Positions 2,863 through 26,205 of a stretch of DNA of 64,000 nt are shown piece by piece. The position numbers and the translations under genes are program-made. Below the pieces are notes generated by a model. The model did no database searches and was not told the DNA's origin. It saw only the letters and a list, made by a program, of their open reading frames with translations. Position 1 is the first letter of the stretch. Each line of letters starts with the position of its first letter. Origin of the DNA: Candidatus Aminicenantes bacterium (GTDB taxonomy: Bacteria > Acidobacteriota > Aminicenantia > Aminicenantales > JAFGAV01); NCBI GenBank assembly GCA_016933515.1, contig JAFGAV010000063.1:3629-67628 (forward strand), written 5' to 3'.

Positions 2863-2863
2863 C

Positions 2864-5372: not shown

Positions 5373-5374
5373 GG

Positions 5375-6106
5375 ATGCTCAGAGTGTTCAAAGCCGACCT
5401 TCACGTTCACACCTGCCTTTCGCCCTGCGGCGATTTGGAGATGGCGCCGGAGAGGATCGCTCTCGAGGCGCGGCGCCGGGACATCTCGATCCTCGGCATC
5501 TGCGACCATAACACCGCCGAAAACACTCCGGCTCTTCTCCGCGCCGGAGAGCGGAACGGGGTTTCCGTCCTGCCCGGGCTGGAAGTGACTTCCCAAGAAG
5601 AAGTTCACATCCTGGCGCTGTTCGACCGCGTGGAGTCGGCTCTGGAGATGCAAAAAACCGTCTACGACCACCTGCCCGGAGAAAACGACGAGGATGCCTT
5701 CGGTCCTCAGGTCGTCGTCAACGACCGGGGCGAAGTCCTGGGGTTCAACCCCCGCCTTCTCATCGGCGCCACCACCCTGCCCCTGGGGGATGTCGTGCGC
5801 CGGATCCACGAGCTCGACGGGCTGGCCATCGCCGCTCACGTCGACCGTGAGAGCTACAGTCTGATCGGCCAGCTGGGGCTCATTCCGGACGACCTGGACC
5901 TGGACGCCCTGGAGGTCTCGCCCCGAACGACCTTGGCCGAAGCCCGTTCCCGTTATGGAAATCGATTTCCCCTGACAACCGCCTCGGACGCCCATTTCCT
6001 CAGGGACATCGGAGCGGCCGTCACGGAATTCGTGCTCGAGGACGGCACGGTGCCGGAAATCCGTCTGGCGCTCGAAGGACGCGACGGACGGCGCCTCGGA
6101 CATTGA
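5375..6106 (+). CDS. PHP-domain metal-dependent phosphoesterase
   Basis: Internal ATG 5375 lies 2 nt after the upstream stop. MLRVFKADLHVHTCLSPCGD...ILGICDHNT is the PHP His motif pattern. The upstream part of the track ORF (from 5300, GTG) overlaps the previous gene and is rejected. Confidence 0.75.
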   Translation: MLRVFKADLHVHTCLSPCGDLEMAPERIALEARRRDISILGICDHNTAENTPALLRAGERNGVSVLPGLEVTSQEEVHILALFDRVESALEMQKTVYDHLPGENDEDAFGPQVVVNDRGEVLGFNPRLLIGATTLPLGDVVRRIHELDGLAIAAHVDRESYSLIGQLGLIPDDLDLDALEVSPRTTLAEARSRYGNRFPLTTASDAHFLRDIGAAVTEFVLEDGTVPEIRLALEGRDGRRLGH

Positions 6107-6663
6107 AAGGACGCATGGAAGACTTGTCGCTGCACATTCTCGACGTCGCGGAGAACTCGGTGCGGGCCGGGGCCGGCACGGTTGCCATCCGCGTCGAGGA
6201 AGACAGCCGCGGCGATGTCCTTTCTCTCGAAATCGAGGACGACGGCGAGGGCATGGATGAAACGACGAAGAAAAAGATCCTGGATCCTTTCTTCACCACC
6301 CGGACGACGCGGCGGATCGGCCTGGGCCTGCCGCTCCTGGCCGAGGCGGCCCGGGCGGCCGAAGGGCGCCTGTCCGTCGATTCCGCCCCGGGAAAAGGAA
6401 CGCGCGTCACGGCCGTCTTCCGCCGCAGCCATATCGACCGCAAGCCGCTGGGCGACATCGTCCAAACCCTGGTGGCTCTTATCCTGGGCCATCCCGGAAC
6501 GCATTTCGTCTACCGGCAGGCCGTCGACGGGCGGACCTTCCTTTTCGACACACGGACGCTGCGTGTCGAGTTGGAAGACGCGCCGCTCGACTCTCCGTCA
6601 GCCATCTCCCTCATCCGAAAAAGACTGCAGGAAGGCCTGGCTTCCCTAAGGAGGACAACATGA
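6103..6663 (+). CDS. GHKL/HATPase-domain protein (histidine-kinase-like ATPase, no HisKA)
   Basis: LHILDVAENSVRAGA...LEIEDDGEGMD...DPFFTTR...IGLGLPLL...GKGTRV (N, G1, G2 boxes). ATGA overlaps on both sides. Confidence 0.7.
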   Translation: MKGRMEDLSLHILDVAENSVRAGAGTVAIRVEEDSRGDVLSLEIEDDGEGMDETTKKKILDPFFTTRTTRRIGLGLPLLAEAARAAEGRLSVDSAPGKGTRVTAVFRRSHIDRKPLGDIVQTLVALILGHPGTHFVYRQAVDGRTFLFDTRTLRVELEDAPLDSPSAISLIRKRLQEGLASLRRTT

Positions 6664-7115
6664 GCAACAGCAAGGTCATGGAAATTCTCGGCCGGTACGA
6701 GTCCGACCCGGGCGCCATCATCTCCATTCTCCAGGATGTTCAGGAAGCCTATCGCTACCTCCCCCGCGACGTCCTGGCCGACGTCTCCCGGGAGATCAAT
6801 ATCCCCCTGAGCCGCATTCTCAGCCTGGCCACCTTTTACAAGGCCTTCAGCCTGAAACCCAAGGGCAGGCACGCCTTTCATGTCTGTCTGGGCACCGCCT
6901 GCCACGTCCGCGGCGCTCAGCTCGTTCTGGAGAAGCTCGAGCGGGAATTGGGCATCTCCGCCGGCGAGACGTCCGAGGACCTGGCGTACAGTCTGGACGC
7001 CGTCCGCTGCGTGGGATGCTGCGGACTGGCGCCGGTCGTCATGGTCGGGGAGGAAGTCCACGGCAAAATCACCCAGACCAAAGTCTCCGGCCTCGTGAAA
7101 AAATATTCTAGATAG
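6660..7115 (+). CDS. NuoE/HydC-type [2Fe-2S] subunit of NADH-linked flavoprotein module
   Basis: AIISILQDVQEAYRYLP...HVCLGTACHVRG...VRCVGCCGLAPV is the classic NuoE thioredoxin-like 2Fe-2S pattern. Confidence 0.9.
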   Translation: MSNSKVMEILGRYESDPGAIISILQDVQEAYRYLPRDVLADVSREINIPLSRILSLATFYKAFSLKPKGRHAFHVCLGTACHVRGAQLVLEKLERELGISAGETSEDLAYSLDAVRCVGCCGLAPVVMVGEEVHGKITQTKVSGLVKKYSR

Positions 7116-7126
7116 GGGAAGACCTC

Positions 7127-7525
7127 ATGCCGAAACTCACCCTGGAAGAACTGGCGAAAGTGCGGGAGCAGGCGCGAAAGAAAACCCATCTCCGCGAGGG
7201 CGGAGAGGTCCGGGCCAAGGTGACGGTCCATATGGGAACGTGCGGCATCGCGGCCGGCGCGCGGACCATCATGAGCACTCTGCTGTCCGAGATCGAGAGC
7301 CGGGACGTCCGCGACGTCCAGGTGACGAACTCGGGATGCGCGGGGCTGTGCAGCCGGGAGCCGATGATCACCGTGGAGCTGGCCGGCGAGGCGCCGGTCA
7401 AATACGTGGACCTCAATCCGGACAAGATGAAAACCATCTTCGCAGAGCATGTCCTCGGCGGGAAGATCGTCGCGAAATACGCCCTGGGCATCGGCAGCGA
7501 AAAAACGGACTTTCCCAAGGAGTGA
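7127..7525 (+). CDS. small thioredoxin-like (2Fe-2S) ferredoxin (HydD-like)
   Basis: VTVHMGTCGIAAGA...SGCAGLCSREPM; 132 aa; located between the nuoE-like and nuoF-like genes. Confidence 0.8.
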   Translation: MPKLTLEELAKVREQARKKTHLREGGEVRAKVTVHMGTCGIAAGARTIMSTLLSEIESRDVRDVQVTNSGCAGLCSREPMITVELAGEAPVKYVDLNPDKMKTIFAEHVLGGKIVAKYALGIGSEKTDFPKE

Positions 7526-7528
7526 GCC

Positions 7529-9361
7529 ATGCCCGAAAAACACGCGGAGACGGCCCATCGTCTCCATCTCATGGTCTGCGCCGGGACGGCCTGCGTCTCC
7601 AATCATTCCTTCGCCATCAAGGACGCCCTGGAGAAAGAGATCCGGAAACACGGCCTGGAGAACGAAGTCCTGGTCGTCACCACGGGCTGCAACGGGTTCT
7701 GTGAGCGCGGCCCCCTTCTCGTCGTCCAGCCGGGGAACATCTTTTACCAGCAGCTCACCGTCAAGGACATCCCGCATCTCGTGGAAGAGCACTTTCTCAA
7801 GGGACGACCGGTCAGCCGGCTGATGTACACGCCGCCCAAGGAGAAAAAACCCGTTCCGGTCCTGAGCGACATCGATTTTTTCAAGAAACAGGTGCTCATC
7901 GCTCTTAGAAACAGAGGCCTGATCGACCCCGAAAAAATCGAGGAGAGCATCGCCCGGGACGGCTACAAAGCCATGGCCAAAGCCCTGACGGAAATGACGC
8001 CCGCCCAGATCATTATGGAGATCAAACAGTCCGGGCTGCGGGGACGAGGCGGAGCGGGCTTTCCCACCGGCTTGAAATGGGAGATGGTCCGCAACGCCGT
8101 GAGCACGAACGGCGGGGGCAAGTACCTGATTTGCAACGGCGACGAGGGCGACCCGGGCGCGTTCATGGATCGAAGCATCCTGGAGGCCGACCCCCATTCC
8201 GTCATCGAAGGCATGGTCATCGGCGCCAAGGCCGTGGGCGCCACCGAGGGCGTGCTCTACGTCCGGAACGAATACCCGCTGGCCGTCAAAAGGCTCCAAA
8301 TCGCACTCGCCCAGGCCCGAGAGTACGGCCTGCTGGGCGAGGACATCCTGGGCACGAAGTTCAGCTTCGACATCAAGGTCCACCGGGGCGCCGGCGCTTT
8401 CGTCTGCGGCGAGGAGACCGCTCTCATCGCCTCGATCGAGGGCCGGCTGGGCGAACCCCGGCCCCGTCCCCCCTACCCGGCCCAGAGCGGCCTCTACGGC
8501 CGGCCGACGCTCATCAATAACGTCGAGACCTGGGCCAACGTGCCCGTGATCATCGACCGGGGATCTTCCTGGTTCTCCTCGATCGGCACGGAGACGAGCA
8601 AGGGCACCAAAGTCTTCTCCCTCGTGGGCAAGATCAACAACACCGGCCTGGTCGAAGTGCCCATGGGCATCACCCTGCGGGAGATCATCTACGACATCGG
8701 CGGGGGCATCCCCGGCGGGAAGGCCTTCAAAGCCGTTCAGACGGGCGGACCCTCGGGAGGCTGCATCCCCGCGGACATGATCGACTTGCCGATCGATTAC
8801 GAGAGCCTGAGCCAGGCCGGATCGATGATGGGCTCGGGCGGCATGGTCGTCATGGACGAGGACACCTGCATGGTGGACGTGGCCCGTTATTTCCTGTCCT
8901 TCACCAAGGACGAGTCCTGCGGCAAATGCACGCCCTGTCGCGAAGGCACAAAGATCATGTTCGACATCCTGACGCGGATCTGCGAAGGCCGGGGAACGGA
9001 AGCGGACCTGGAGCTCCTGGAAAGCCTGGCCCCTTCGATCAAAGACTCGGCGCTCTGCGGCCTGGGCAAAACCGCGCCCAATCCCGTCCTCACCACGCTG
9101 CGCTATTTCCGCTCCGAGTATGAGGCCCACATCCGGGACAAGAAATGTCCGGCTCACGTGTGCCGGCAGCTCAACACCTACACCATCGACGAAAAGATCT
9201 GCCTCGAAGCCGGACATGGATGCGATGTCTGCCGCCGCAATTGCGCTTCCGACGCCATCCGGGGCGAGAAAAACACGGCTCACTCCATCAACCAGGACAA
9301 GTGCATCAAATGCGGCGTATGTCTCGACGTCTGCAAATTCCACGCCGTCAAGGTCGAATAG
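7529..9361 (+). CDS. NuoF/HydB-type FMN/NAD(H)-binding subunit with extra N-terminal 2Fe-2S and C-terminal 2x[4Fe-4S] domains
   Basis: LRGRGGAGFPTGLKW and NGDEGDPGAF (NADH/FMN motifs); ESCGKCTPCREG (N3 cluster). N-terminal MVCAGTACVS...GCNGFCERGP. C-terminal CDVCRRNCASDAI and CIKCGVCLDVC. Confidence 0.9.
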   Translation: MPEKHAETAHRLHLMVCAGTACVSNHSFAIKDALEKEIRKHGLENEVLVVTTGCNGFCERGPLLVVQPGNIFYQQLTVKDIPHLVEEHFLKGRPVSRLMYTPPKEKKPVPVLSDIDFFKKQVLIALRNRGLIDPEKIEESIARDGYKAMAKALTEMTPAQIIMEIKQSGLRGRGGAGFPTGLKWEMVRNAVSTNGGGKYLICNGDEGDPGAFMDRSILEADPHSVIEGMVIGAKAVGATEGVLYVRNEYPLAVKRLQIALAQAREYGLLGEDILGTKFSFDIKVHRGAGAFVCGEETALIASIEGRLGEPRPRPPYPAQSGLYGRPTLINNVETWANVPVIIDRGSSWFSSIGTETSKGTKVFSLVGKINNTGLVEVPMGITLREIIYDIGGGIPGGKAFKAVQTGGPSGGCIPADMIDLPIDYESLSQAGSMMGSGGMVVMDEDTCMVDVARYFLSFTKDESCGKCTPCREGTKIMFDILTRICEGRGTEADLELLESLAPSIKDSALCGLGKTAPNPVLTTLRYFRSEYEAHIRDKKCPAHVCRQLNTYTIDEKICLEAGHGCDVCRRNCASDAIRGEKNTAHSINQDKCIKCGVCLDVCKFHAVKVE

Positions 9362-9373
9362 GAGGTCCCCCTC

Positions 9374-11131
9374 ATGATCACCCTGAGCATAGACGGAAAA
9401 CCGATCCAGGTCGAGGAAGGCACGACCCTCCTCGAAGCCGCCCGCAAGCTGGACATTCCCATTCCGACGCTCTGCCATCATCGGGTCATCGAACCCTACG
9501 CCGCGTGCCGGGTGTGCCTGGTCGAGGTCTCGCTCAAAGGGAGGACGGATCTTGTCCCCTCCTGCAACACCAAGGCCGTCGAGGGCATGGAGGTCCGGAC
9601 CCAGTCGCCCCGCGCCCTCAACGCCAGAAAAATGAACGTCGAGATGCTCCTGGCTAGGGCGCCGGCCGCCGAGCCGGTGCGGGAGATCGCCCGCTCGCTG
9701 GGCATCACCGAAACGCGCTTCGAGGTCAAAGAGCCGACAAGGAAGTGCATCCTGTGCGGCCTGTGCGTCCGGGCCTGCGAGGACATCGTCGGCGCCAACG
9801 CCATCAGCTTTCTCGAGCGCGGTGCGGAACGGAGGGTGTCCACTCCTTTCGACGAACCGTCCGAGGCTTGCATCGGCTGCGCGGCCTGCGCCTTTTTCTG
9901 TCCCACGGGAGCCATCACCGTCGAGGATCTGCGGGGCCGCAAAGTCCTCCACGACGAGTTCACCCTCGGACCCTCGACAGCCATCCGCATCCCCACCCGG
10001 CAGGCCGTCCCCATGGTGCCCTTCATCGACGAGGACGCCTGCATTCACTTCAAAACGGGGAAATGCGGCGTCTGCGCCAAGGTGTGCGACCGGGAAGCGG
10101 TCAATCACGAGATGCAGGACGAGATCATCGAGTTCGAGGTGGGCTCGATCATCGTCGCCTCGGGCTTCAAATCCTTCGACGCCCGGAGGATCCCGGCCTA
10201 CGGCTACGGACGCTATCCCAACGTCCTCACCGCCGAAGAGTTCGAGCGGATGGTCAACGCCTCGGGCCCCACGGGCGGGAAGATCAAGCTGACCGACGGC
10301 CGCGAGCCGCAGGCCGTGGGCATCGTCCACTGCGTCGGCTCGCGCGACGTCAACTTCAACGAGTACTGCTCCCGAGTGTGCTGCATGTATTCCCTGAAAT
10401 TTGCGCATCTCATCAAGGAAAAAACGAACGCGGCGATCTACGACTTCTACATCGACATGCGCACCTACGGCAAAGGCTACGAGGAATTCTACCACCGGCT
10501 CCTCGAGGAGGGGACTCACTTCATCCGCGGCCGCGTGTCGGAGATCACGGACATGGCGACGACGGACGCCGAAGAAGGAAAACTCATCATCCGGGTCGAG
10601 GACACGCTTCTCGGGTCGGTGCGGCGCATCCCCGTGGACATGGTCGTCTTGGCCACGGGGCTCGAGCCGAGCCTGGACCACAACCTCCTGGCGAAGACGC
10701 TCGGCATCTCCTGCAGCCAGGACGCGTTTTTCCTTGAGCGCCATCCCAAGCTCGCCCCCTTGGCCACCTATTCCGACGGGATTTTCCTGGCCGGCACCTG
10801 CCAGGCGCCCCGCGACATTCCCGATACGGTCGCCCAGGCCGGGGGCGCGGCGGCCGAGGCCCTGGCCCTGGCCGACAAGGGAACGTTCGCCCTGGAGCCC
10901 ATCACCGCCGTGATCGACAAGGACATCTGCGCCGGCTGCCAGATCTGCGTCGGCCTGTGCCCGTTTACGGCCATCACCTTCGACAAGGAGCAGGGCGTTT
11001 CCGTCATCAACGACGCGCTGTGCAAGGGTTGCGGAACCTGCGTGGCGGCCTGCCCGAGCGGCGCGGCCCAACAGAAGCATTTTCGCGACACGCAGATTTT
11101 CGCCGAGATCGAGGGGATTTTCCTGGCATGA
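9374..11131 (+). CDS. hdrA: fusion protein: NuoG/HydA-like N-terminal [2Fe-2S]+2x[4Fe-4S] module joined to the C-terminal two-thirds of HdrA
   Basis: C34/C45xxC48/C64 2Fe-2S pattern; CILCGLCVRAC; CIGCAACAFFCP. HdrA-collinear sequence follows: CIHFKTGKCGVCAKVC, IIVASGF, VHCVGSRD, YCSRVCCMYSLK, FLAGTCQAPRDIP, CAGCQICVGLCP, CKGCGTCVAACP. Confidence 0.8.
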   Translation: MITLSIDGKPIQVEEGTTLLEAARKLDIPIPTLCHHRVIEPYAACRVCLVEVSLKGRTDLVPSCNTKAVEGMEVRTQSPRALNARKMNVEMLLARAPAAEPVREIARSLGITETRFEVKEPTRKCILCGLCVRACEDIVGANAISFLERGAERRVSTPFDEPSEACIGCAACAFFCPTGAITVEDLRGRKVLHDEFTLGPSTAIRIPTRQAVPMVPFIDEDACIHFKTGKCGVCAKVCDREAVNHEMQDEIIEFEVGSIIVASGFKSFDARRIPAYGYGRYPNVLTAEEFERMVNASGPTGGKIKLTDGREPQAVGIVHCVGSRDVNFNEYCSRVCCMYSLKFAHLIKEKTNAAIYDFYIDMRTYGKGYEEFYHRLLEEGTHFIRGRVSEITDMATTDAEEGKLIIRVEDTLLGSVRRIPVDMVVLATGLEPSLDHNLLAKTLGISCSQDAFFLERHPKLAPLATYSDGIFLAGTCQAPRDIPDTVAQAGGAAAEALALADKGTFALEPITAVIDKDICAGCQICVGLCPFTAITFDKEQGVSVINDALCKGCGTCVAACPSGAAQQKHFRDTQIFAEIEGIFLA

Positions 11132-11177
11132 ACCCCTCGGATTTCCGCTCGTTTTCCCGGAACGGCAATCCGGGGAT

Positions 11178-11199
11178 GACCGGGAGAGAATTCCCGGTC
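11178..11199 (+). other. intercistronic stem-loop (8-bp stem GACCGGGA/TCCCGGTC, 6-nt loop)
   Basis: Read directly from the sequence in the 107-nt gap between the HdrA-fusion gene and mvhD. No T-run follows, so it is not a classical terminator. Confidence 0.3.
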
Positions 11200-11238
11200 T
11201 CCCCGCTCAAAAGGTCTTCTCAACGAGGAGAACACAAA

Positions 11239-11679
11239 ATGCAGGAAGAACCGTTTGAGCCCAATCTGGTCGGGTTTTTGTGCACCTGGTGCTCCTACAC
11301 CGGGGCCGATTTTGCGGGGACGGCCCGCATGACCTATGCGCCCAACGTGAAGATCATCCGCGTGATGTGCAGCGGCCGTGTGGATCCCCAATTCGTGCTC
11401 AAGGCGTTCCGGGAGGGCGCCGACGGAGTTCTCATCTCGGGCTGCCACCCGGGCGACTGCCATTATAAAGAAGGGAACTATCGGACCCTGCGCCGATACC
11501 GGCTCCTGATCCGAGTGCTGGAACAGATGGGGATCGAGCCCGCAAGGCTCCGGCTGGAATGGGTCTCGGCCGCCGAAGGCGCTAGGTTTCAACGGGTCTG
11601 CAACGAATTCACGGAACAGATCCGGGCCCTGGGACCTCTCAGCCTGAATGGAGGAAAACATGAGCAACACCAAGCCTAA
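11239..11679 (+). CDS. mvhD: MvhD-like (methyl-viologen-reducing hydrogenase delta subunit) [2Fe-2S] protein
   Basis: ATG 11239 follows GAGGAG (11225-11230). FLCTWCSYTGADFAG...IRVMCSGRVDP...ADGVLISGCHPGDCHY is the MvhD/FlpD signature. Confidence 0.85.
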   Translation: MQEEPFEPNLVGFLCTWCSYTGADFAGTARMTYAPNVKIIRVMCSGRVDPQFVLKAFREGADGVLISGCHPGDCHYKEGNYRTLRRYRLLIRVLEQMGIEPARLRLEWVSAAEGARFQRVCNEFTEQIRALGPLSLNGGKHEQHQA

Positions 11680-12640
11680 GGTCGCCTTTTACTGGTGCGC
11701 CTCCTGCGGGGGGTGCGAGGAGTCGATCATCGACCTGGCCGAGGACATCCTCAAGGTCGCGGCGGCGGTGGACATCGTGTTCTGGCCCGTGGCCCTGGAT
11801 TTCAAGAGGAAAGACGTCGAGGCCATGGAAGACGGTTCGATCGCCGCGAGTTTCATCAACGGCGCCGTCCGCAACAGCGAACAGGAGGACATGGTCAAGC
11901 TCCTCCGCCGCAAGTCCCGGATCGTCGTGGCCCACGGCTCGTGCTCCCACTTGGGCGGCATCCCCGGCCTGGCCAACTTCTGGGACAAGGAGACGATCTT
12001 CAGGCGGGCCTACCTGACCACGCCTTCGACCGACAATCCCCAGGGAGTCGTGCCCCTGGAAAAAAGCGCGGTCGACGGCTGCGAGCTCGAGCTGCCCCGT
12101 TTCTACGACACCGTTTTCTCACTGGACCAGGTGATCGACGTGGATTATTACCTTCCCGGCTGCGCCCCCCCGCGGGATCTCATCCTGAGCGCCTTTCAGG
12201 CCCTCCTGGAGGGCACTCTCCCGCCCAAGGGCTCGGTCCTATCGCCCAACAAGTCCGAGTGCGACGAGTGCGACCGCAACGACACGAAGCCGGAGAAGCT
12301 CGAGATCAAGGAGGTCAAGCGCCCCTGGGAGGTTCACCTCGACCCTGAAGTCTGCTTCCTCGCCCAGGGCGTGATCTGCATGGGCCCGGCCACCCGGGCG
12401 GGGTGCGGACAGCGCTGCATTTCGGCCAACATGCCCTGCCGCGGCTGTTTCGGTCCCACGGACCAGGTCTACGACCAGGGAGCCAAGTTCCTCTCGGCCT
12501 TCGCTTCGATCCTGGCCACCGACGACGAAAAGGAAATCGAGAACATCGTCCAGACCATCGTCGACCCGGCGGGCACGTTCTACCGGTTCAGCCTGCCGAG
12601 CAGCATCCTCAGGCGAAAGAGATTGGAGGCGGTCAAATGA
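11660..12640 (+). CDS. mvhG: [NiFe] hydrogenase small subunit, cytoplasmic group-3c (MvhG)-like
   Basis: KVAFYWCASCGGCEESIID is the proximal-cluster motif, and there is no Tat signal. The start is either ATG 11660 (GGAGGA at 11650-11655) or ATG 11648. ATGA overlap with the large subunit. Confidence 0.85.
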   Translation: MSNTKPKVAFYWCASCGGCEESIIDLAEDILKVAAAVDIVFWPVALDFKRKDVEAMEDGSIAASFINGAVRNSEQEDMVKLLRRKSRIVVAHGSCSHLGGIPGLANFWDKETIFRRAYLTTPSTDNPQGVVPLEKSAVDGCELELPRFYDTVFSLDQVIDVDYYLPGCAPPRDLILSAFQALLEGTLPPKGSVLSPNKSECDECDRNDTKPEKLEIKEVKRPWEVHLDPEVCFLAQGVICMGPATRAGCGQRCISANMPCRGCFGPTDQVYDQGAKFLSAFASILATDDEKEIENIVQTIVDPAGTFYRFSLPSSILRRKRLEAVK

Positions 12641-14106
12641 CGACCCGCGGCAAGAAAATCACCATCGACCCCATCACCCGGCTGGAGGGGCACGGCAAGA
12701 TCGAAATCTTTCTCGACGACAAGGGGGACGTCCACCGGGCCATCCTCCAGATTCCGGAGCTCCGGGGCTTCGAGCAGTTCGCCGTCGGCCGGCCCGTTGA
12801 AGAAATGCCCCGCATCACCCCCCGCATCTGCGGCGTCTGTCCCACGGCCCACCATATGGCCGCCACCAAGACCGTGGACGCCGTCTTCCATGTCGAGCCC
12901 ACGCCCGCCGGCCGCATGATCCGGGAACTCATCTACAACACCTTCATGTTCGAGGACCACACGCTCCACTTTTTCTTCCTCGGCGGTCCGGACTTCGTCG
13001 TCGGCCCCACCGCGCCGAAAGGCGAGCGGAACATCCTGGGCGTCATCGGCAAGGTCGGGTTGGAAATCGGCGGCCGGGTCATCAAGGCCCGCCGCGAAAC
13101 CCGGGACATCATCAATCACCTGGGCGGCAAAATCATCCATCCCGTGTGCGGCCTGCCGGGCGGCGTTTCCAAGGGGCTGGACGAGGAGCACCGGCTGAAG
13201 TTCCTCGAGGTGGCCAAAAACACCGTGGAGTTCGCCCAATTCGCCCTCACCATCTTCGACGACGTCGTCTTAAAGAACAAGCAGTACGTCGACCTTGTTC
13301 TGAGCGACGCCTTCACCATCAAGACGCATTACATGGGGCTCGTGGACGAAAAGAACAGGGTCAATTTCTACGACGGCGATCTCCGCGTCGTCACTCCCGA
13401 GGGCAAGGAATTCGTCAAATTCAAGCCCGACCGGTATCTGGACGTCATCGCCGAGCACGTCGAGCCGTGGACGTACATCAAATTTCCGTTCCTGAAAAAG
13501 ATCGGCTGGAAGGGGTTTCAGGACGGTCCGGACAGCGGGGTTTTCCGCGTGGCTCCCCTGGCTCGGCTCAACGCCTCGGACGGCATGGCCACCCCGAGAG
13601 CTCAGGCCGAATACGAGAAGATGTACTCCGTCCTGGGCGGAAAGCCCGTCCACAACACGCTCGCCTTCCACTGGGCCCGCCTGATCGAGGCGCTCCAGGC
13701 GGCCGAGGCCATGGTCGGCCTGCTCGAGGACAAGGCCATCACCGACCCCAACATCCGCAACATCCCCACCGCCGTTCCGGACGAGGGCGTGGGCATCGTC
13801 GAGGCTCCCCGCGGCGTCCTCATCCACCACTACAAGACCGATCCGCGGGGAATCGTCACCGAGGCCAACCTCATCGTGGCCACGGTGAACAACGCCGCGG
13901 CCATCAACATGTCCATCGAAAAGGCGGCTAGAGCGTTCATCAAGGGAGGAAAAATCGACGACGGCCTGCTCAACATGGCCGAGATGGGATTCCGCCCTTA
14001 CGACCCCTGCCACGCCTGCGGCACACACGCCCTGGGCGGGGAGGCCCCTCTGGTCGTCGACGTGTTCGACAAGGACGGCAACCTCGTCCGCCGACTGACG
14101 CGCTGA
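12637..14106 (+). CDS. mvhA: [NiFe] hydrogenase large subunit, group-3c (MvhA)-like
   Basis: Internal ATG 12637 overlaps the small-subunit stop. ITRLEGHG; N-terminal RICGVCPTAHH; C-terminal DPCHACGTH followed by a 25-aa cleavable extension. The upstream 78 codons of the track ORF are rejected. Confidence 0.9.
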   Translation: MTTRGKKITIDPITRLEGHGKIEIFLDDKGDVHRAILQIPELRGFEQFAVGRPVEEMPRITPRICGVCPTAHHMAATKTVDAVFHVEPTPAGRMIRELIYNTFMFEDHTLHFFFLGGPDFVVGPTAPKGERNILGVIGKVGLEIGGRVIKARRETRDIINHLGGKIIHPVCGLPGGVSKGLDEEHRLKFLEVAKNTVEFAQFALTIFDDVVLKNKQYVDLVLSDAFTIKTHYMGLVDEKNRVNFYDGDLRVVTPEGKEFVKFKPDRYLDVIAEHVEPWTYIKFPFLKKIGWKGFQDGPDSGVFRVAPLARLNASDGMATPRAQAEYEKMYSVLGGKPVHNTLAFHWARLIEALQAAEAMVGLLEDKAITDPNIRNIPTAVPDEGVGIVEAPRGVLIHHYKTDPRGIVTEANLIVATVNNAAAINMSIEKAARAFIKGGKIDDGLLNMAEMGFRPYDPCHACGTHALGGEAPLVVDVFDKDGNLVRRLTR

Positions 14107-16277: not shown

Positions 16278-17653
<1,376 letters not shown>

Positions 17654-17712: not shown

Positions 17713-17751
17713 AATGCGCATTCAATTTTTTTGGTTTTTTTCACTTGCCTC

Positions 17752-17767
17752 GGGAACATTCCTTGCC
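17752..17767 (+). promoter_or_regulatory. candidate sigma-54 (-24/-12) promoter of the group-3b hydrogenase operon
   Basis: gGGaAC-ATTCC-TTGCc compared with consensus TGGCAC-N5-TTGCW. The invariant GG (17753-54) and GC (17765-66) are separated by exactly 10 nt. It lies about 80 nt upstream of ATG 17845 and directly downstream of a sigma-54 activator gene. Confidence 0.5.
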
Positions 17768-17844: not shown

Positions 17845-18903
17845 ATGAGAATCGTCAAGCTCAAAAAAGAGTATTTTCATCCCTTCCTGGACGTCATTTC
17901 CCGACAGGCTGAGCTTTGGGCGCCGGTGAAGAAGGGGGACAAGCACATCTTCGACCGTGTCGAGGACTTCAATCGGATCGAAATGAAAACGACGCGGACT
18001 CTTCTTCCCCCCAAGAAGCTTCTGGTCCCGCCCGCATTCAACACCTTCACCTTCAACGCGGAGGGGTACCAGGAGGACCTGTCTCACGTATCCTCCAAAA
18101 TTCTGTTCGGCATCCACCCCTGCGACATTCACGGCTTGCTCACCCTGGACAAGCTGTTCATGCATGAGTATACCGACCCTTACTACGTCAAAGCGCGCCA
18201 GAAAACGCTGATTCTCGGACTGTCCTGCTGGCCGGACGAATACTGTTTCGCCAAGTCCACACGGACGCACATCATCGACGAGGGATTCGATCTGTTTTTC
18301 ACCGACCTGGAGGATTTTTTCCTGGTCTGGGTCGGCTCCAGCCAAGGCGACGACCTCCTGCGCATGAAGCCCGACCTGTTCGAGGAAACGCTCAGTGATT
18401 CCGACATCCAGCGCTACATCCGCTGGCAAACGGAACGGGACAAGGCCTATCGGACCGAGATCAATTTCATGGCCATGCCCGACCTTATGGAGCTCAAATA
18501 CAAAGCCCCCTTCTGGGAGGAGGCGGGCCGGGCCTGCCTGGCCTGCGGATCCTGCTCCATGGTCTGCCCCACCTGCAACTGCTACAACGTTCTGGACAAG
18601 CTCGCCCTGGGCGGGAAGCCGGGGCGCCGCCTCCGGCTCTGGGATTCCTGCACGCTGGTCGAATATTCCGAGGTGGCCGGCGGAGAAAATTTCCGGGAGC
18701 ACAAGGCCGACCGCTTGCGCCTGTGGTACACCCACAAGCTGCAGGCCTACGTCAGCAAATACGGCAAGCCGAGCTGCGTCGGCTGCGGACGCTGTCTCGT
18801 GACCTGCCCGGTGGAGATCAACGTCCGGACGATCTCCAAGGCTCTCGAGGGCGAAGACCCCAAGGCCTTTTGGTACCGACTCCCAAGCGAGGTGAAACCA
18901 TGA
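17845..18903 (+). CDS. group-3b [NiFe] hydrogenase beta subunit-like (HydB/AsrA-type 4Fe-4S protein)
   Basis: ATG 17845 follows AAAGGAG. CLACGSCSMVCPTCNC and CVGCGRCLVTCP cluster motifs. The upstream 38 codons of the track ORF span the promoter region and are rejected. Confidence 0.8.
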   Translation: MRIVKLKKEYFHPFLDVISRQAELWAPVKKGDKHIFDRVEDFNRIEMKTTRTLLPPKKLLVPPAFNTFTFNAEGYQEDLSHVSSKILFGIHPCDIHGLLTLDKLFMHEYTDPYYVKARQKTLILGLSCWPDEYCFAKSTRTHIIDEGFDLFFTDLEDFFLVWVGSSQGDDLLRMKPDLFEETLSDSDIQRYIRWQTERDKAYRTEINFMAMPDLMELKYKAPFWEEAGRACLACGSCSMVCPTCNCYNVLDKLALGGKPGRRLRLWDSCTLVEYSEVAGGENFREHKADRLRLWYTHKLQAYVSKYGKPSCVGCGRCLVTCPVEINVRTISKALEGEDPKAFWYRLPSEVKP

Positions 18904-19760
18904 ACGGAGAAACACGCTGCCGGGAAGAAGGCAACCCCTTTCTCCCCCATCCGGCGCGCATCGTCCGGACTTACCCTCTGACCCAGGACGTGAAGTTTTT
19001 TCAGATCCGCTTTCTGAACATGGATCAGGCCCTGGCCTTCAAATACAAGCCGGGCCAGTTCGCCATGATCTCGGTCTTGGGAGCGGGGGAAGCTCCCTTC
19101 TGCCTGTCGTCTCCCCCCTCGCGGCCCGGGCTGCTCGAATTCTGCATCCGGAAAGCGGGCTCCGTGACCGGCGCCCTCTTCGACCTCAAGGAAAACGCCA
19201 TGATCGGCGTCCGAGGTCCGTACGGCAACGGCTTCCCCATCGAACAGATGGCGGGCCGGGACATCCTGATCACCATCGGCGGCCTGGGCGTCGCCCCTCT
19301 CCGCTCGGTGCTGCTTTACTGCCTGGACAACCGCGATCAGTTCGGCAAGGTCTCCGTCCTCTACGGCGCCAAGAAGCCTTCGGAAATGATCTTCCGCGAG
19401 GAATATTTCGCCCTCAAGGAACGGGGGGACCTGGAGTGCCACCTGGCCGTGGACGCGGACGACACGGGCTCCTGGACGGAGAACGTCGGCGTGGTGACGA
19501 CCCTCTTTCCCAAGCTGTCCAAGGTCAATCCGGAGAACACCTACGCCCTCGTCTGCGGGCCGCCCGTCATGTACAAGTTCGTCCTCCGCGAGTTCGTCAA
19601 GCTCAGCATCCCCAAGAACCAGATCCTCATGACCCTCGAACGCCGGATGAAGTGCGGCGTGGGCAAGTGCGGACACTGCGCCATCGATTACATCTACACC
19701 TGTCTGGACGGCCCCGTTTTCACGTACTGGGACGTCCTCCACATGCGGGAGCTCATCTGA
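18900..19760 (+). CDS. group-3b hydrogenase gamma subunit-like (FAD/NAD(P)H-binding, [2Fe-2S]; HydG/AsrB-type)
   Basis: ATGA overlap with the beta subunit. FKYKPGQFAMIS, GPYGNGF, IGGLGVAPLRS, CGPPVMYKF, C-terminal CGVGKCGHCA. Confidence 0.85.
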   Translation: MNGETRCREEGNPFLPHPARIVRTYPLTQDVKFFQIRFLNMDQALAFKYKPGQFAMISVLGAGEAPFCLSSPPSRPGLLEFCIRKAGSVTGALFDLKENAMIGVRGPYGNGFPIEQMAGRDILITIGGLGVAPLRSVLLYCLDNRDQFGKVSVLYGAKKPSEMIFREEYFALKERGDLECHLAVDADDTGSWTENVGVVTTLFPKLSKVNPENTYALVCGPPVMYKFVLREFVKLSIPKNQILMTLERRMKCGVGKCGHCAIDYIYTCLDGPVFTYWDVLHMRELI

Positions 19761-19770
19761 GGAGGCGGCC

Positions 19771-20553
19771 ATGAAAAAAGACAAGCTGAAAATCGGGATC
19801 TACGAGCTGACGGGCTGCGCCGGGGACGCCCTTCTCATCCTCGACTGCGAGGACGAGCTCATCAACATATTCCATGCCGCGGACATCCGGTCGTTCCTGA
19901 TGGCCAAAAGCGACAACATCGACGGCGAGCTCGATGTCGCCCTCGTCGAGGGCTCGGTCAGCACGGAAAGGGACCTCCAGGAGCTTCTCGACATCCGGAA
20001 ACGGTCCAAAGTGCTCGTGGCCATCGGGCTCTGCGCCACCGCGGGAGGAAACCAGGCCGCGTTCCTCGACCCCCGGGAGTGGGAGGACAATCTGAAGAAG
20101 GTCTACGGCCGGACCGAGATGACCCACACCAAACCCCTTCAATCCAAACCCCTCAACGCCTACGTCAAGGTCGATCATTACCTGCCCGGATGTCCCATCG
20201 ACCGGGAGCAGTTTCTCTCGACCCTCACCCGCCTCCTGGCCGGACATCCCCCGGAGCTGCACCGCTTTCCCGTCTGCGTGGAGTGCAAATGGCGGGAGAA
20301 CGACTGCCTCCTCAATCGGGGCATCCTCTGCCTCGGCCCCTTGACGGCCGCGGGGTGCCGGGCGGTCTGTCCCAGCCACAACCTGCCCTGCGTCGGCTGC
20401 TGGGGGCCGGCCGAGGAGGCCAACTACACGGCCGAGTATCAGCTCCTGATGGAAAAGGGGTTCGACCGGGAGATGATCCTGCGCAAGATGTCCACCTTCA
20501 GCGGAACGGCCATCGCCGATTTCGCCGCCCGCATCCGAGGAGTAAAGAAATGA
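19771..20553 (+). CDS. group-3b [NiFe] hydrogenase small (delta) subunit
   Basis: KIGIYELTGCAGDALLILD (NuoB-like proximal cluster) and GCPI...CVECK...CLGP...GCRAVCP...CVGCWGP distal clusters. No Tat signal. Confidence 0.85.
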   Translation: MKKDKLKIGIYELTGCAGDALLILDCEDELINIFHAADIRSFLMAKSDNIDGELDVALVEGSVSTERDLQELLDIRKRSKVLVAIGLCATAGGNQAAFLDPREWEDNLKKVYGRTEMTHTKPLQSKPLNAYVKVDHYLPGCPIDREQFLSTLTRLLAGHPPELHRFPVCVECKWRENDCLLNRGILCLGPLTAAGCRAVCPSHNLPCVGCWGPAEEANYTAEYQLLMEKGFDREMILRKMSTFSGTAIADFAARIRGVKK

Positions 20554-22283
20554 AGACCATCAGCATCAGCCATCTGGCCCGCGTCGAGGGGGCCGGGGGC
20601 GTCACGGCCACGATCGACGGCCAGGTCGTGACCGACGTCAAGTTCATCATCAACGAAGGCCCGCGCCTGTTCGAACGCCTGACGATCGGCAAGACTCCCG
20701 AGGAAGACCTCAACATCGTCCCCCGCATCTGCGCCATCTGCACGCTGTCCCACCGCTACGCCGCCCTGCGCGCCCTGGAAAAAGCCCTGGCGATCAAGGA
20801 GCCGCCCAAGGTCCTGCTCCTGAGAGAGCTCATGCACCTGGGGGAAATGATCGAAAGCCATTCCCTGCATGTCTATCTCCTGGCCCTTCCCGATTACCTC
20901 GGCTATCCGAACGCCATCGCCATGGCCTCCAAATACGGCTTCGAGGCCAAGGTCGGCCTGGAGATGAAGCAGTTCGGCAACCACATCATGAAAACCCTGA
21001 GCGGACGGTTCGTCCACGGCGAGAATCCCATTCTCGGAGGCTTCGGCCGCTTCCCGACCCGCGAGGAGCTGGTCTTCATCAAGAACCGCGCCGTGCAATT
21101 CCTGCCCTTCGCCCTGAAAACCGTGCAGCTCATGTGCGAACTGCCCTATCCCGAGATCCCTGAGTCGGACACTCTGTTCGTCTGCTGCCACCCCGCCGCC
21201 GGGCAATTCGGCTTCATGGGCGACGAGGTCATCCTCTCCAACGGCGACCTCGTCGACGCTCAGGAGTACAAAAAGGTCACCAACGAGTTCATCGTCTCCC
21301 ATTCCTTCTGCAAGCGCAGCCAATATGACGGCAAGCCCTATTCCGTGGGCGCCCTGGCGCGGATCAACAATCTGGGAGAGAGGCTGGAAGGAGAGGCCGG
21401 ACGCGCCTTCAAAAAGTATTTCAACGCCCGCTGGAAGAAGAACCCCCTGTTCAACAACGCCGCGCAGGCCCTGGAGATCCTCTACAGTTTCGAGCGCATC
21501 CCCCAAGTCATCGAGGAAGCCCTCAAGATGCCCGACCCGGAACCGGTCGGATGGGGCCGGGACACGGGGAAAGCCGTCGGCGCCGTCGAGGCCCCGCGCG
21601 GCATCCTGTTCCACGCCTATGACGTTTCCGCCGGACGCATCGCCCACACCGATATCGTCACCCCCACGGCTCAAAACGCGGAGGACATCGAGCGTTACTG
21701 TTTCATCGCCGCGCAAACGCTCTTGAAAAAAGGGGAAGAGGCCAAAATCAGGGACCGTATGGATCTCGTGATCCGCGCGTTCGACCCGTGCATCAGCTGC
21801 TCGGCCCACATGGTCCAGGTCAAACAGGCTCCGAACGAAGATTGGAAAACCCGTCTCCAAGAGCTGGCGTCCGGGGGGGAGACGGCCTTCGTCGGTCTCG
21901 GCCGTGAAGACCGGTCGGACGACGCCGCCGGACTGGAGCTGGCCCGCCTCCTCAGAGACCGCGGCTCAAAAAACGTTCGGCTGGCCGAGGACCTGTCGGA
22001 GGAGACCGCACCGGCCGTCGGAACGCGACCGCTCGTTTTTCTCGACGCCGTGGATTTCGGCGAAAAGCCGGGCAAAATCTGTCTCCTTCCCCTGCGCTTT
22101 GTCCTCTGGAACACGTCCCTGAGCCACAGACTGGCCGCCCTGACCGGACTGCCCCTCGATTCCGAACAGCTTCTAGGGGCCCATCTTCTGGGCATCCAGC
22201 CGGCTTCCATCGCCGAGGGCGGCCCGATATCGGCCGAAGTCCGGGAAGCCATGAACGAAATCCTGGAAATGCTCGGCAACTGA
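20550..22283 (+). CDS. group-3b [NiFe] hydrogenase large (alpha) subunit fused in frame to a HybD/HycI-type maturation endopeptidase domain
   Basis: ATGA overlap with the small subunit. LARVEGAG; RICAICTLSH; DPCISCSAH (His420). The frame then continues 157 codons without a stop: AFVGLGREDRSDDAAGLELARLL...LVFLDAVDFG...SLSHRL...LLGIQP are endopeptidase motifs. Confidence 0.85.
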   Translation: MKTISISHLARVEGAGGVTATIDGQVVTDVKFIINEGPRLFERLTIGKTPEEDLNIVPRICAICTLSHRYAALRALEKALAIKEPPKVLLLRELMHLGEMIESHSLHVYLLALPDYLGYPNAIAMASKYGFEAKVGLEMKQFGNHIMKTLSGRFVHGENPILGGFGRFPTREELVFIKNRAVQFLPFALKTVQLMCELPYPEIPESDTLFVCCHPAAGQFGFMGDEVILSNGDLVDAQEYKKVTNEFIVSHSFCKRSQYDGKPYSVGALARINNLGERLEGEAGRAFKKYFNARWKKNPLFNNAAQALEILYSFERIPQVIEEALKMPDPEPVGWGRDTGKAVGAVEAPRGILFHAYDVSAGRIAHTDIVTPTAQNAEDIERYCFIAAQTLLKKGEEAKIRDRMDLVIRAFDPCISCSAHMVQVKQAPNEDWKTRLQELASGGETAFVGLGREDRSDDAAGLELARLLRDRGSKNVRLAEDLSEETAPAVGTRPLVFLDAVDFGEKPGKICLLPLRFVLWNTSLSHRLAALTGLPLDSEQLLGAHLLGIQPASIAEGGPISAEVREAMNEILEMLGN

Positions 22284-23531: not shown

Positions 23532-24647
23532 ATGGCAGGCGAAGTTTTGACCATTTTAGTCATCGACGACGAAGAGTCCATGCGCGATTCCTGCAGCCAG
23601 ATTTTTCTCAAAGACGGCTTCCGGGCGGAAACCGCCGAGAACGGCGAGGTCGGCCTGAAAAAAATCGAGGAGCTTCATCCTCACCTTGTCCTCGTCGACC
23701 TGAAAATGGCCGGTCTCAGCGGCTTCGAAGTCCTGGAGCGCGGCCTTCAGCTCGACAAGGACCTGGTCTTTGTGGTCATCACCGGCTATGCCACCGTGGA
23801 ATCGGCCGTGGAGGCCATGAAAAAGGGGGCCTATGACTTCCTGCCCAAGCCGTTTTCGCCCGAGGAGCTGCGGATGATCATCCGCCGCGGGCTCGAGCGG
23901 CGCCTTCTCCTCCTGGAAACCAAAGCGCTGCGGCGGGAAAAAAAGCTCATGGAGGAAAATTTCGTGACCATGGTCTCCCACCAGCTCCGCAGCCCCCTGG
24001 CGGCCATCGAGCAGTACTTCGAGGTTCTTCTGGCGGGCATGGTCGCGCCTCTTGACGCGGGCGTCAAGGAGATGCTGACCCGGGCCGAGGAGCGTCTGGC
24101 GGGGCTTCTGCAACTCATCAATGACTGGCTGGACCTCTCCCGCCTGGGTCAAGTCCGGACGACAGACGCAATGAAGCCTGTCGCCCTTCGCCCCCTGCTC
24201 GGCCGCCTGACGGAGTTCTGGCGTCCGGCGGCGGCCAAAAGCGGCGTCACGCTCTCCCTGCGAAAAACAATAGGCTCGGATCGCGCGTGGGGGGACGAAC
24301 AAAGCCTGGAACAGATCTTCTCCAACCTGCTCAGCAACGCCGTCAAGTACAACCGGCCGGGCGGGACGGTCGCGCTCGCCGTTCGAGAAGAGGTCGCCGC
24401 CGTGGCCGTCGAAATCCGGGATACGGGCGTCGGCATCCCCGCCGAGCACATGCCCCGCCTCTTCGATCCGTTCTTTCGGGTCAAGCGCACTGAGGACCGG
24501 GAAGAGAAGGGAACGGGTTTGGGATTGCCGATCGCCAAAAAAATCGCGGAATCCCACGGCGGCCGCATCGAGGTTGAGAGCAAGGAAGGCCGGGGATCGA
24601 CCTTCACCGTCTTCCTTCCGAAAGAAAAAAAGGAGACGGACCATTAG
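23532..24647 (+). CDS. hybrid REC-HisKA-HATPase histidine kinase (cytoplasmic)
   Basis: ILVIDDEESMRD...VLVDLKMAG...KPF; H-box MVSHQLRSPLAAI; NLLSNAVKYN; DTGVGI; GTGLGLPIAK. No TM segments. Confidence 0.85.
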   Translation: MAGEVLTILVIDDEESMRDSCSQIFLKDGFRAETAENGEVGLKKIEELHPHLVLVDLKMAGLSGFEVLERGLQLDKDLVFVVITGYATVESAVEAMKKGAYDFLPKPFSPEELRMIIRRGLERRLLLLETKALRREKKLMEENFVTMVSHQLRSPLAAIEQYFEVLLAGMVAPLDAGVKEMLTRAEERLAGLLQLINDWLDLSRLGQVRTTDAMKPVALRPLLGRLTEFWRPAAAKSGVTLSLRKTIGSDRAWGDEQSLEQIFSNLLSNAVKYNRPGGTVALAVREEVAAVAVEIRDTGVGIPAEHMPRLFDPFFRVKRTEDREEKGTGLGLPIAKKIAESHGGRIEVESKEGRGSTFTVFLPKEKKETDH

Positions 24648-25173
24648 CGGCGGAAAAACGCTCGTCCTGGGCCTGGGGAACGACCTCTACGGAGACGACG
24701 GCGTGGGGATCGAGGTCGTCCGCCGGCTGAGGGAAGAAACGGCGACGGTCCGCAACGAGGAACACACCGTCTTCGAGGAATGCACGCTCACGGGTCTGGC
24801 GCTTCTGGATGTCATCACCGGCTACGACCGCCTGATCCTCGTCGACACGATCAAGAGGCCGCGGCCCCGGACCGGCAGAGTCAGCATTTTGAGGGCGGAG
24901 GATCTGAGGTCCCTCCCCGGCCCTTCGCCCCATTATGTGTCCGTCCCCCAGACCATCGAGATCGGCCGCCGCGTCGGCCTCCCTGTCCCCTCGACGATCA
25001 TCGTCGTCGCCGTCGAGTCGAAGAACATGCACCGCCTCGGCGAAGGACTCTCGGAGGACATGAGGCGGTCGCTGCCCCGCATCATGGAGACAGTGAGGGA
25101 GGCTCTGAAAAACGACGCCACCGGCAAAAAAATCACCGGTTCCGCCCGGGGGGCCCGAGGACGGCGCCCATGA
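24574..25173 (+). CDS. stand-alone [NiFe] hydrogenase maturation endopeptidase (HyaD/HybD/HycI family); start codon uncertain
   Basis: LVLGLGNDLYGDDGVGIEVV, LILVDT, SPHYVSV motifs. The track start (TTG 24574) overlaps the kinase gene by 74 nt. AGGAGA at 24631-36 sits 6 nt before an in-frame ATT at 24643. Confidence 0.8.
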   Translation: MRARKAGDRPSPSSFRKKKRRRTISGGKTLVLGLGNDLYGDDGVGIEVVRRLREETATVRNEEHTVFEECTLTGLALLDVITGYDRLILVDTIKRPRPRTGRVSILRAEDLRSLPGPSPHYVSVPQTIEIGRRVGLPVPSTIIVVAVESKNMHRLGEGLSEDMRRSLPRIMETVREALKNDATGKKITGSARGARGRRP

Positions 25174-25850
25174 AGCGCAAGGACGTGGAGGTCTACGAGG
25201 ACATCCTCAAGTCGAACGTCGCCGCGGCCGCGGAGGTCCGGCGCCGCTTTCGGGAACAGGGCGTTCTCGTCGTCAATCTCTTAAGCTCACCGGGGGCGGG
25301 AAAGACCACGCTCCTCGAGCGGCTCATCGACAGGCTCCCGCCCCCCGCCCGACTGGCCGTCATCGAGGGCGACATCGAAACCGAGCGCGACGCCGAGCGC
25401 ATCCGGGCCAAGGGCGTCCCGGCCTGGCAGATCCAGACGGGCGGCGCCTGCCATCTCGAAGCCAAGATGATCGGCCGGCTCCTGGGGGAACTGCCCTCCG
25501 ATTTGGACTTCCTGTTCATCGAGAACGTGGGCAATCTCGTCTGCCCCGCCGCCTTCGACTTGGGCGAAAGCCTCCGCGTGGTGCTGTTGTCCGTTCCCGA
25601 GGGCGACGACAAGCCGAAAAAATACCCCAAGGCGTTCCTGACCGCCCAGGCCCTCGTCCTCAGCAAGGCGGACCTTGTCGGCCTGCTGCCCTTCGATCCC
25701 GAGCGGGCCCGCGGAGAAGCCCTGGAGATCAATCCTTCCCTCGCGGTCTTCCGCGTCTCGGCCCTCACCGGGGAGGGTCTCGACGACCTGGTCGCTTATC
25801 TCCACCTCGCGCGGGCCGGGCTCGCCGCCGAAGACGGCCGCCATGCATGA
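25170..25850 (+). CDS. hypB: hydrogenase nickel-incorporation GTPase HypB
   Basis: ATGA overlap with the endopeptidase gene. SSPGAGKTTLL (P-loop), GGACHLEA (CH motif), ENVGNLVCPA, LSKADL. Confidence 0.9.
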   Translation: MKRKDVEVYEDILKSNVAAAAEVRRRFREQGVLVVNLLSSPGAGKTTLLERLIDRLPPPARLAVIEGDIETERDAERIRAKGVPAWQIQTGGACHLEAKMIGRLLGELPSDLDFLFIENVGNLVCPAAFDLGESLRVVLLSVPEGDDKPKKYPKAFLTAQALVLSKADLVGLLPFDPERARGEALEINPSLAVFRVSALTGEGLDDLVAYLHLARAGLAAEDGRHA

Positions 25851-26205
25851 GATGTCGCTCATCGCCGGGCTCTTCGAAATCCTCGAGGAGAAAGCCCGCG
25901 AGCACAAAGCCCGCAGCGTCACGGCCGTGAGACTGCGGGTGGGGACGCTCTCGGGCGCAGTGCCGGAGCTCCTCGAGACCGCCTTCGACATGTACAAAAA
26001 GGGGACGCTGGCCGAAAAGGCCGCGCTGGTCACCATCGCCGTGCCGGTCAAGGTCCGCTGCCGCGCCTGCGGCTCGGAGTTCGAGGTCGACGATTATGTT
26101 TTCCACTGCCAGTTCTGCGGAGCGGCCGACCTGGAAATTCTCTCCGGGACCGATCTCCTCGTGGAATCGATCGAGCTCGAAACCGAGGACGAGACGCCGG
26201 CCTGA
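25843..26205 (+). CDS. hypA: hydrogenase nickel-insertion protein HypA
   Basis: Starts MHEMSL (MHE nickel site) and carries the zinc motif CRACG...CQFCG. 120 aa; 8-nt overlap with hypB. Confidence 0.85.
   Translation: MHEMSLIAGLFEILEEKAREHKARSVTAVRLRVGTLSGAVPELLETAFDMYKKGTLAEKAALVTIAVPVKVRCRACGSEFEVDDYVFHCQFCGAADLEILSGTDLLVESIELETEDETPA

Follow-up and report, generated by a model that had tools for sequence, protein, structure and literature searches.

In the accepted picture of [NiFe] hydrogenase maturation, the large subunit is processed by a free, dedicated protease that is encoded near its substrate (PMC7654741; PMC12134894). The closest described systems to the one considered here are the group-3b hydrogenases of two archaea, SHI (HydBGDA) of Pyrococcus furiosus and Hyh (HyhBGSL) of Thermococcus kodakarensis. 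Their precursors have only four residues after the terminal histidine (-VVRL in P. furiosus), which are cut off by a separate protease, FrxA or TkHybD, and SHI stays inactive until the dedicated FrxA has removed -VVRL (PMC2865534). Here we describe a related locus in a 64,000-nucleotide stretch of contig JAFGAV010000063.1 from a Candidatus Aminicenantes bacterium (the window). The locus has the four-gene beta-gamma-delta-alpha operon, the cysteine motifs and the terminal histidine of the archaeal systems, but its large-subunit gene (20550-22283, + strand) encodes 157 residues after that histidine, and these are, by sequence and predicted fold, the protease itself.

We consider it likely that the product is a precursor composed of a group-3b large subunit, a short extension and a competent protease of the HybD/HycI type (A31) that processes itself after His420, and that all such precursors go back to one fusion. 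The evidence for the two halves, for their junction and for the distribution of the fusion is presented below, followed by the ways in which the precursor may be processed.

Organization of the gene and its operon

The open reading frame (ORF) at 20550-22283 translates into 577 residues, with its sole stop at 22281-22283, and its ATG shares the sequence ATGA with the stop of the small-subunit gene. The motif DPCISCSAH occupies residues 412-420; the codon of His420 (CAC, 21807-21809) is followed immediately 3' by an ATG (M421), and 157 codons run on beyond His420 with no stop between. Translation thus bears out what the initial annotation had said of the frame, and the tail motifs that it named, VGLGREDRSDDAAG (D457/D458), LVFLDAVDFG (D499) and SLSHRL (H526), stand where it had placed them. 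The Ni/Fe cysteines of the large subunit are C61/C64 (RICAIC, in RICAICTLSH) and C414/C417 (DPCISC). Since the window has 63% G+C and long antisense or spurious ORFs are common in it, the open frame alone is weak evidence. The G+C content of the three codon positions of the tail (0.73/0.44/0.75) is of the coding type, and an internal start at M421 has no visible Shine-Dalgarno-like sequence ahead of 21810 to support it. The calculated masses are 63.6 kDa for the precursor, 46.7 kDa for the part up to His420 and 16.9 kDa for the tail. The parts of the operon and of the fused gene are as follows.

17845-18903, + strand: beta subunit, 4Fe-4S protein (PF17179 Fer4_22, 112 bits; synteny kept in 20 loci)
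18900-19760, + strand: gamma subunit, FAD/NAD(P)-binding, 2Fe-2S (PF00175, PF10418, PF00970; synteny)
19771-20553, + strand: delta (small) subunit (PF01058 Oxidored_q6, 76 bits; stop overlaps the alpha start)
20550-21809, + strand: catalytic part of the large subunit, residues 1-420 (sulfhyd_HydA, 358 bits; PDB and Foldseek matches)
21807-21812, + strand: predicted scissile bond His420-Met421 (placed by alignment with the ends of mature P. furiosus chains)
21810-21842, + strand: putative short native C-terminal extension or tether, M421-D431, MVQVKQAPNED (ends of un-fused relatives; low model confidence)
21843-21884, + strand: N-terminal helix region of the protease, W432-T445, WKTRLQEL... (invariant W432; confident helix in the domain model)
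21885-22283, + strand: predicted maturation endopeptidase core, residues 446-577, plus stop (TIGR00072, PF01750, family profile, structure model, Foldseek)
21918-21923, 22044-22046 and 22125-22127, + strand: codons of the putative ligands D457-D458, D499 and H526 in the core

The large subunit is of the group-3b type, as had been proposed. In the PDB it is best matched by HyhL of T. kodakarensis (5yxy, 337 bits) and SHI alpha of P. furiosus (9nez, 327 bits), with an end-to-end alignment over residues 4-423. The other hydrogenase groups reach at most 149 bits: the bifurcating HydABCSL large subunit (7t2r) 149, MvhA 140, HoxH 136 and Frh 84-142. With the full-length AlphaFold model (mean predicted local distance difference test, pLDDT, 78.9), Foldseek returns 9nf0, 9nez and 9e15 as the top matches and ranks the groups in the same order as the sequence search; against the P. 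furiosus and T. kodakarensis structures TMt is 0.84, at an identity of only 35-39%. His420 pairs with the final residue of the deposited mature SHI alpha chains (9e15_B, 9e1j_B), and it is invariant, together with the Ni/Fe cysteines, in 121 sequences. The scores lie far under the equivalog cut-offs of NCBIfam NF040832 (358 vs 880 bits) and NF040828 (335 vs 700 bits), so the protein shares the group-3b architecture but is not an equivalog of Pyrococcus HydA/ShyA. The beta-gamma-delta-alpha gene order is kept in 20 related loci. On these comparisons, 17845-22283 is a group-3b-type [NiFe] hydrogenase operon, and H2:NAD(P)+ or sulfur-reducing activity is predicted for it.

The tail as a maturation endopeptidase

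The initial annotation had named a profile comparison of residues 421-577 as a check on its reading of the tail. Scanned alone, the tail passes both models narrowly (TIGR00072, 48.8 bits against a cut-off of 47.45; PF01750, 24.5 against 23). A phmmer search with the tail among 1.84 billion representatives gives 473 matches at E<=1e-3, nearly all of them stand-alone proteases of 150-200 aa, and a hidden Markov model (HMM) built from 119 stand-alone representatives gives the tail 113 bits. The sole match in a sequence search of the PDB is TkHybD (5ija). The AlphaFold2 (AF2) domain model of the tail has a pLDDT of 88.4 and a predicted template modelling (TM) score, pTM, of 0.85; the alignment behind it consists of stand-alone family members. 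With this model, the best ten PDB matches in Foldseek are all HycI/HybD/HyaD-type proteases (among them EcHycI, TkHycI, TkHybD, 5ttx, EcHybD and 2kml; E 5e-9 to 6e-6, TM 0.5-0.65), and peptidyl-tRNA hydrolases rank next. Likeness to peptidyl-tRNA hydrolases has been described for the maturation-protease fold, in which a cleft holds two Asp and one His that are the proposed nickel ligands (PMC12134894).

The residues expected of such a cleft are present. All of 151 fused proteins, 21 of which come from other lineages, have D457, D458, D499 and H526, and in 111 stand-alone sequences the same D/D/D/H columns are either invariant or conserved to at least 90%. The metal ligands proposed for the characterised enzymes are E16/D62/H93 in HybD and D16/D62/H90 in HycI. 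In the first homologue set, G449, G451 and W432 are invariant as well. Relative to the homologous gene of locus L001, the ratio of nonsynonymous to synonymous substitution rates (dN/dS) is 0.25 for the protease part and 0.10 for the catalytic part, which indicates purifying selection on the protease part. Judged by profile, modelled fold and invariant ligand residues, the tail is a true member of the hydrogenase maturation endopeptidase family.

The tail shares its fold and the GxG...DD / DA / H signature with the stand-alone A31 proteases (HybD, HycI, HyaD, TkHybD, TkHycI, FrxA, HoxW). The latter occur as separate proteins (148-162 aa in the solved structures) and act in trans, whereas here the domain lies C-terminal to its presumed substrate. 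The tail also has an extra N-terminal helix (DWKxxL), which is common to one subfamily of stand-alone relatives. The three relatives of the DWKxxL type whose neighbourhoods were examined lie beside group-4-type hydrogenase or Mrp-like genes.

The junction

Close relatives without the fusion end in H-LVEVRKKE, H-LVEMKRKE or H-LVEVRRK, each followed directly by the stop. The fused tails open with homologous residues, H-LVEVKRTEMPDWK... in fused forms and H-MVQVKQAPNEDWK in this protein. The match between the ends of the un-fused proteins and the start of the fused tail indicates that the precursor comprises the large subunit, its native short extension and the protease. Of 121 sequences, 100 have M directly after the terminal His, 16 have L and 2 have T, and the distance from this His to the Trp is 11 in 122 of 125. 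In the domain model a helix at 431-440 is confident (pLDDT 94), and the tether N-terminal to it has low pLDDT. The DWKxxL segment aligns with N-terminal positions of the HMM of the stand-alone family; P0137 has RDQWTDRISQL. Three fused proteins, P0271, P0277 and P0132, carry low-complexity or repeat inserts of 40-60 residues (e.g. PRTENTSRTENTPRTEN...) on either side of the DW helix, and the linkers thus tolerate large insertions in some lineages.

Distribution and origin of the fusion

A first search for homologues gave 120 clusters of 570-602 aa, with 61-91% identity and 99-100% coverage, of which the named ones are mostly from Aminicenantes. A second search, with the catalytic part of the divergent fusion P0132, gave more fused proteins (570-640 aa), whose named sources are Candidatus Eisenbacteria and Latescibacteria DG_63. 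Orthologous fusions in related genomes, which the initial annotation had suggested looking for, now amount to more than 150 full-length protein clusters in JGI, ENA, NCBI and Logan assemblies. A genome scan yielded 25 loci in metagenome-assembled genomes (MAGs), about 21 of which have the fusion in frame. The lineages of Aminicenantes, Eisenbacteria and Latescibacteria that carry the fusion are known only as uncultured MAGs. Among the best 150 of the 473 representative matches no fusion to another hydrogenase group was found, only to the 3b type.

Two kinds of apparent split gene were set aside. The one in L020 was rejected as a scaffold gap of Ns. Several short proteins that start exactly at GxG (P0124-P0130) appear to be truncated gene calls from internal V/M starts, and they were not used as evidence of a split gene. 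Two other proteins, P0231 (691 aa) and P0262 (447 aa), have a HycI-type domain after 280-530 residues of internal repeats that match no Pfam family, a layout that could be a gene-call artefact or an unrelated fusion.

The search with P0132 also gave un-fused relatives of 427-440 aa. The Eisenbacteria-like P0279, P0281, P0282 and P0284 are 67-70% identical to the catalytic part of P0132 and share its operon and neighbours; they have the same first 7-8 residues after the His, but a stop follows after 7-8 (or 20) residues. Three loci with un-fused, Eisenbacteria-like large subunits of 427-440 aa (L032-L034) are flanked by the same genes as L026, the locus of the fused P0132. No protease or remnant of one was seen downstream of the un-fused genes or in the retrieved flanks, those of L032-L034 included, so the protease of these three would be encoded elsewhere. 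In neighbour-joining (NJ) trees, which carry no support values and are indicative only, the protease domains of the two fused clades group together, apart from 58 stand-alone representatives, and the un-fused proteins nest within one of the fused clades. This pattern of sequence relationships suggests a single fusion of a large-subunit gene with a downstream protease gene, followed by secondary loss.

Some of the source assemblies call for comment. Twelve of the MAG loci (L002, L004, L006, L008, L010-L012, L014, L015, L017, L020, L024) are labelled 'uncultured Eubacteriales', 'Clostridiales bacterium' or 'Candidatus Desulfaltia'. Their operon is 58-67% identical to the query and, where the flanks suffice, the synteny is that of the Aminicenantes-labelled loci; the labels look unreliable. 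At L022 (OY969762.1, a 'complete' MAG chromosome of 3.18 Mb; 7283-11727), the beta, gamma, delta and alpha genes are split over several frames, which suggests uncorrected indel errors rather than pseudogenes.

The second hydrogenase and the stand-alone protease

The window also encodes a Hox-type hydrogenase. NuoE/F/G-like genes are joined there by those for a small subunit and for a HoxH-like large subunit, in which DPCHACGTH is followed by an ordinary extension of 25 residues. A separate protease gene lies 2.36 kb downstream of the fusion gene, together with hypB and hypA. These neighbouring genes are as follows.

12637-14106, + strand: second [NiFe] large subunit, HoxH-like, in a group-3d-type context (PF00374; translation)
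24640-25173, + strand: stand-alone maturation endopeptidase (TIGR00072, 98 bits), adjoining hypB
25170-26205, + strand: hypB and hypA, for nickel insertion (PF02492, PF01155)

Where HoxH is present, a stand-alone protease stands beside hypB in 10 of 10 places (nine loci and the window). Two loci with the fusion, L009 and L023, have no HoxH within 10 kb; the stand-alone protease is also absent, with hypB in its place, and none is found within 6-10 kb downstream of the fusion. The co-occurrence of HoxH and the stand-alone protease gives a Fisher p of 0.015, calculated over phylogenetically related loci and 10-kb flanks rather than whole genomes. In L008, a stand-alone protease remnant at 10535-10876, directly before hypB, matches HMM positions 14-43 only (28 bits) and is possibly a gene in decay. 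L019 has a different stand-alone protease, at the end of an upstream Mrp/Mbh-like cluster.

Each hydrogenase is held to have one specific protease, encoded nearby (PMC7654741). The stand-alone gene tracks HoxH in keeping with this rule, and the dedicated protease of the 3b enzyme would then be the fused domain. The initial annotation had pointed to the separate endopeptidase as a sign that the fused domain is not the only copy; its gene is best explained as serving another enzyme, and from this gene content it is probably the Hox-type hydrogenase, not the group-3b enzyme, that the product of 24640-25173 processes.

Proposed processing of the precursor

[NiFe] hydrogenases receive Fe(CN)2CO and then nickel from the Hyp proteins. 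For the fused precursor, we propose that the Hyp machinery would insert Fe(CN)2CO, and that HypA/HypB, encoded 3 kb downstream, would insert nickel. The tethered protease would then recognise the nickel-loaded site via D458, D499 and H526 and cut after His420, most probably in its own chain; the analogy with the maturation of SHI by FrxA makes this bond, once nickel is in place, the most probable target of the fused domain. The expected products are a 46.7-kDa mature subunit ending in His, which would close and pair with the small subunit, and a free 16.9-kDa fragment. The fusion would put the protease 1:1 with its substrate, and nickel-dependent gating would be the sole checkpoint. In the strictest form of this scheme, the fusion is a single-turnover autoprotease that is gated by nickel and can cut only its own chain; the protease would be held on permanently at a very high effective concentration, so that nickel insertion alone would decide when cleavage occurs. 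We put this strict form forward tentatively, as a possibility short of probable.

Several points weigh against a self-processing precursor of single origin. When the whole protein is scanned, it falls under both profile cut-offs (TIGR00072, 44.5 vs 47.45 bits; PF01750, 20.9 vs 23), and the confidence of the full-length AF2 model is low at 418-425 and 522-526. Only some 11 residues of flexible tether separate the scissile bond from the first helix that is modelled with confidence. The single origin leans on the unsupported NJ trees, and the assignment of the stand-alone protease on a statistic from related loci and short flanks. Lastly, cleavage, its site, its dependence on nickel and its cis character are what we infer, for this protein and for every other member of the family.

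The strongest competing explanation, which we regard as rather unlikely, is that the fused protease is active mainly in trans, either by one precursor cutting another or by the released 16.9-kDa domain turning over further precursors. The short tether may keep a chain's own scissile bond from its own cleft, and stand-alone family members work in trans by definition; a stable complex of protease and large subunit is reported for Salmonella (PMC5299533). The rigidly kept length of the tether (11 in 122 of 125) speaks for the other side, as it points to a geometric constraint of the kind expected for an intramolecular reaction. The long inserts in P0132, P0271 and P0277 weaken that argument, and leave room for both modes.

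It is less probable still that the tail is a non-catalytic, protease-derived assembly domain that keeps the precursor open and that the stand-alone protease (24640-25173) cuts off. Such a role would fit the presence of that gene nearby, and C-terminal extensions have been proposed to be intramolecular chaperones (PMC6769069; PMC7294309). Invariance of the proposed metal-ligand residues in 151 sequences would, however, be unexpected for a dead domain, the L009 and L023 regions have the fusion with no stand-alone protease, and the stand-alone gene follows HoxH rather than the 3b operon.

We give very little credence to a fusion that is never cleaved, with the protease-like domain as a permanent part of the mature enzyme. 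Some [NiFe] large subunits do not require processing. In its unprocessed form P. furiosus SHI is stable in Escherichia coli, but it is inactive (PMC2865534). Solved group-3b structures terminate at the His that matches H420, and the un-fused sister proteins retain just the 7-8-residue extension. The terminal His of other [NiFe] hydrogenases is buried near the active site, which also counts against a permanent tail.

A missed stop or frameshift that joined two genes, an artefact raised in the initial annotation, may be regarded as excluded: related assemblies are noisy, and L022 and L023 are frameshifted elsewhere in the operon, but an in-frame junction of conserved length recurs in the >150 protein clusters and in about 21 independent MAG assemblies, and the junction residues are themselves conserved.

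Other genes of the region

Upstream of the 3b operon, 547-14106 (+ strand) is a long redox cluster. It includes a 4Fe-4S protein, an HdrB-like CCG protein, an FAD/NAD protein, two HATPase-type proteins and an [FeFe]-hydrogenase-like protein (3679-5031; Fe_hyd_lg_C plus an 'FeS' domain) that may be sensory, followed by the NuoE/F/G-like and HoxY/HoxH-like genes.

A sigma-54 activator gene ends at 17653, ahead of the beta gene (17845). No match to a sigma-54 promoter within one mismatch was found near the operon. In the AT-rich spacer between the two genes, 17751-17766 reads gGGaAC-N5-TTGC, with two mismatches to the sigma-54 -24/-12 consensus and no statistical support. A pair of histidine kinase and sigma-54 activator lies upstream of the operon in L019 too.

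Significance

No description of a natural fusion between a large subunit and its protease was found in the full-text literature, in which subscription journals are thinly covered; there is no mention of one in PMC12727194, PMC12134894 (a 2025 review), PMC7654741, PMC2865534 or PMC6769069. The initial annotation was aware of no characterised example, and the literature searched agrees with it. The architecture is not peculiar to this genome: the family is widespread, and the pair of Pfam domains is already precomputed for many fused members in public databases. The parts and the chemistry are known, and it is the covalent arrangement of substrate and protease, and its breadth, that appear to be unreported. 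Annotation is affected directly: NCBI names some fused members 'hydrogenase maturation protease' and one 'hypothetical protein', and others plain large subunits.

For practical work, the locus offers a compact module of five genes, in effect four cistrons, from which an NAD(P)-linked hydrogenase could be produced heterologously without a separate protease. The fusion also supplies substrate and protease as a ready-made 1:1 complex for structural studies and kinetics. We know of no structure that has captured an A31 protease bound to a hydrogenase precursor. If the precursor is indeed a cis-acting autoprotease, a ligand mutant such as H526A would be a stoichiometric, covalent protease-substrate complex, and would provide a route to such a structure.

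For the biology of maturation, the fusion bears on how the nickel-loaded precursor is recognised, on the catalytic chemistry of cleavage and on why each hydrogenase needs its own protease. With the protease attached to its substrate, recruitment would not be needed as a control step, and nickel-dependent gating would then have to suffice.

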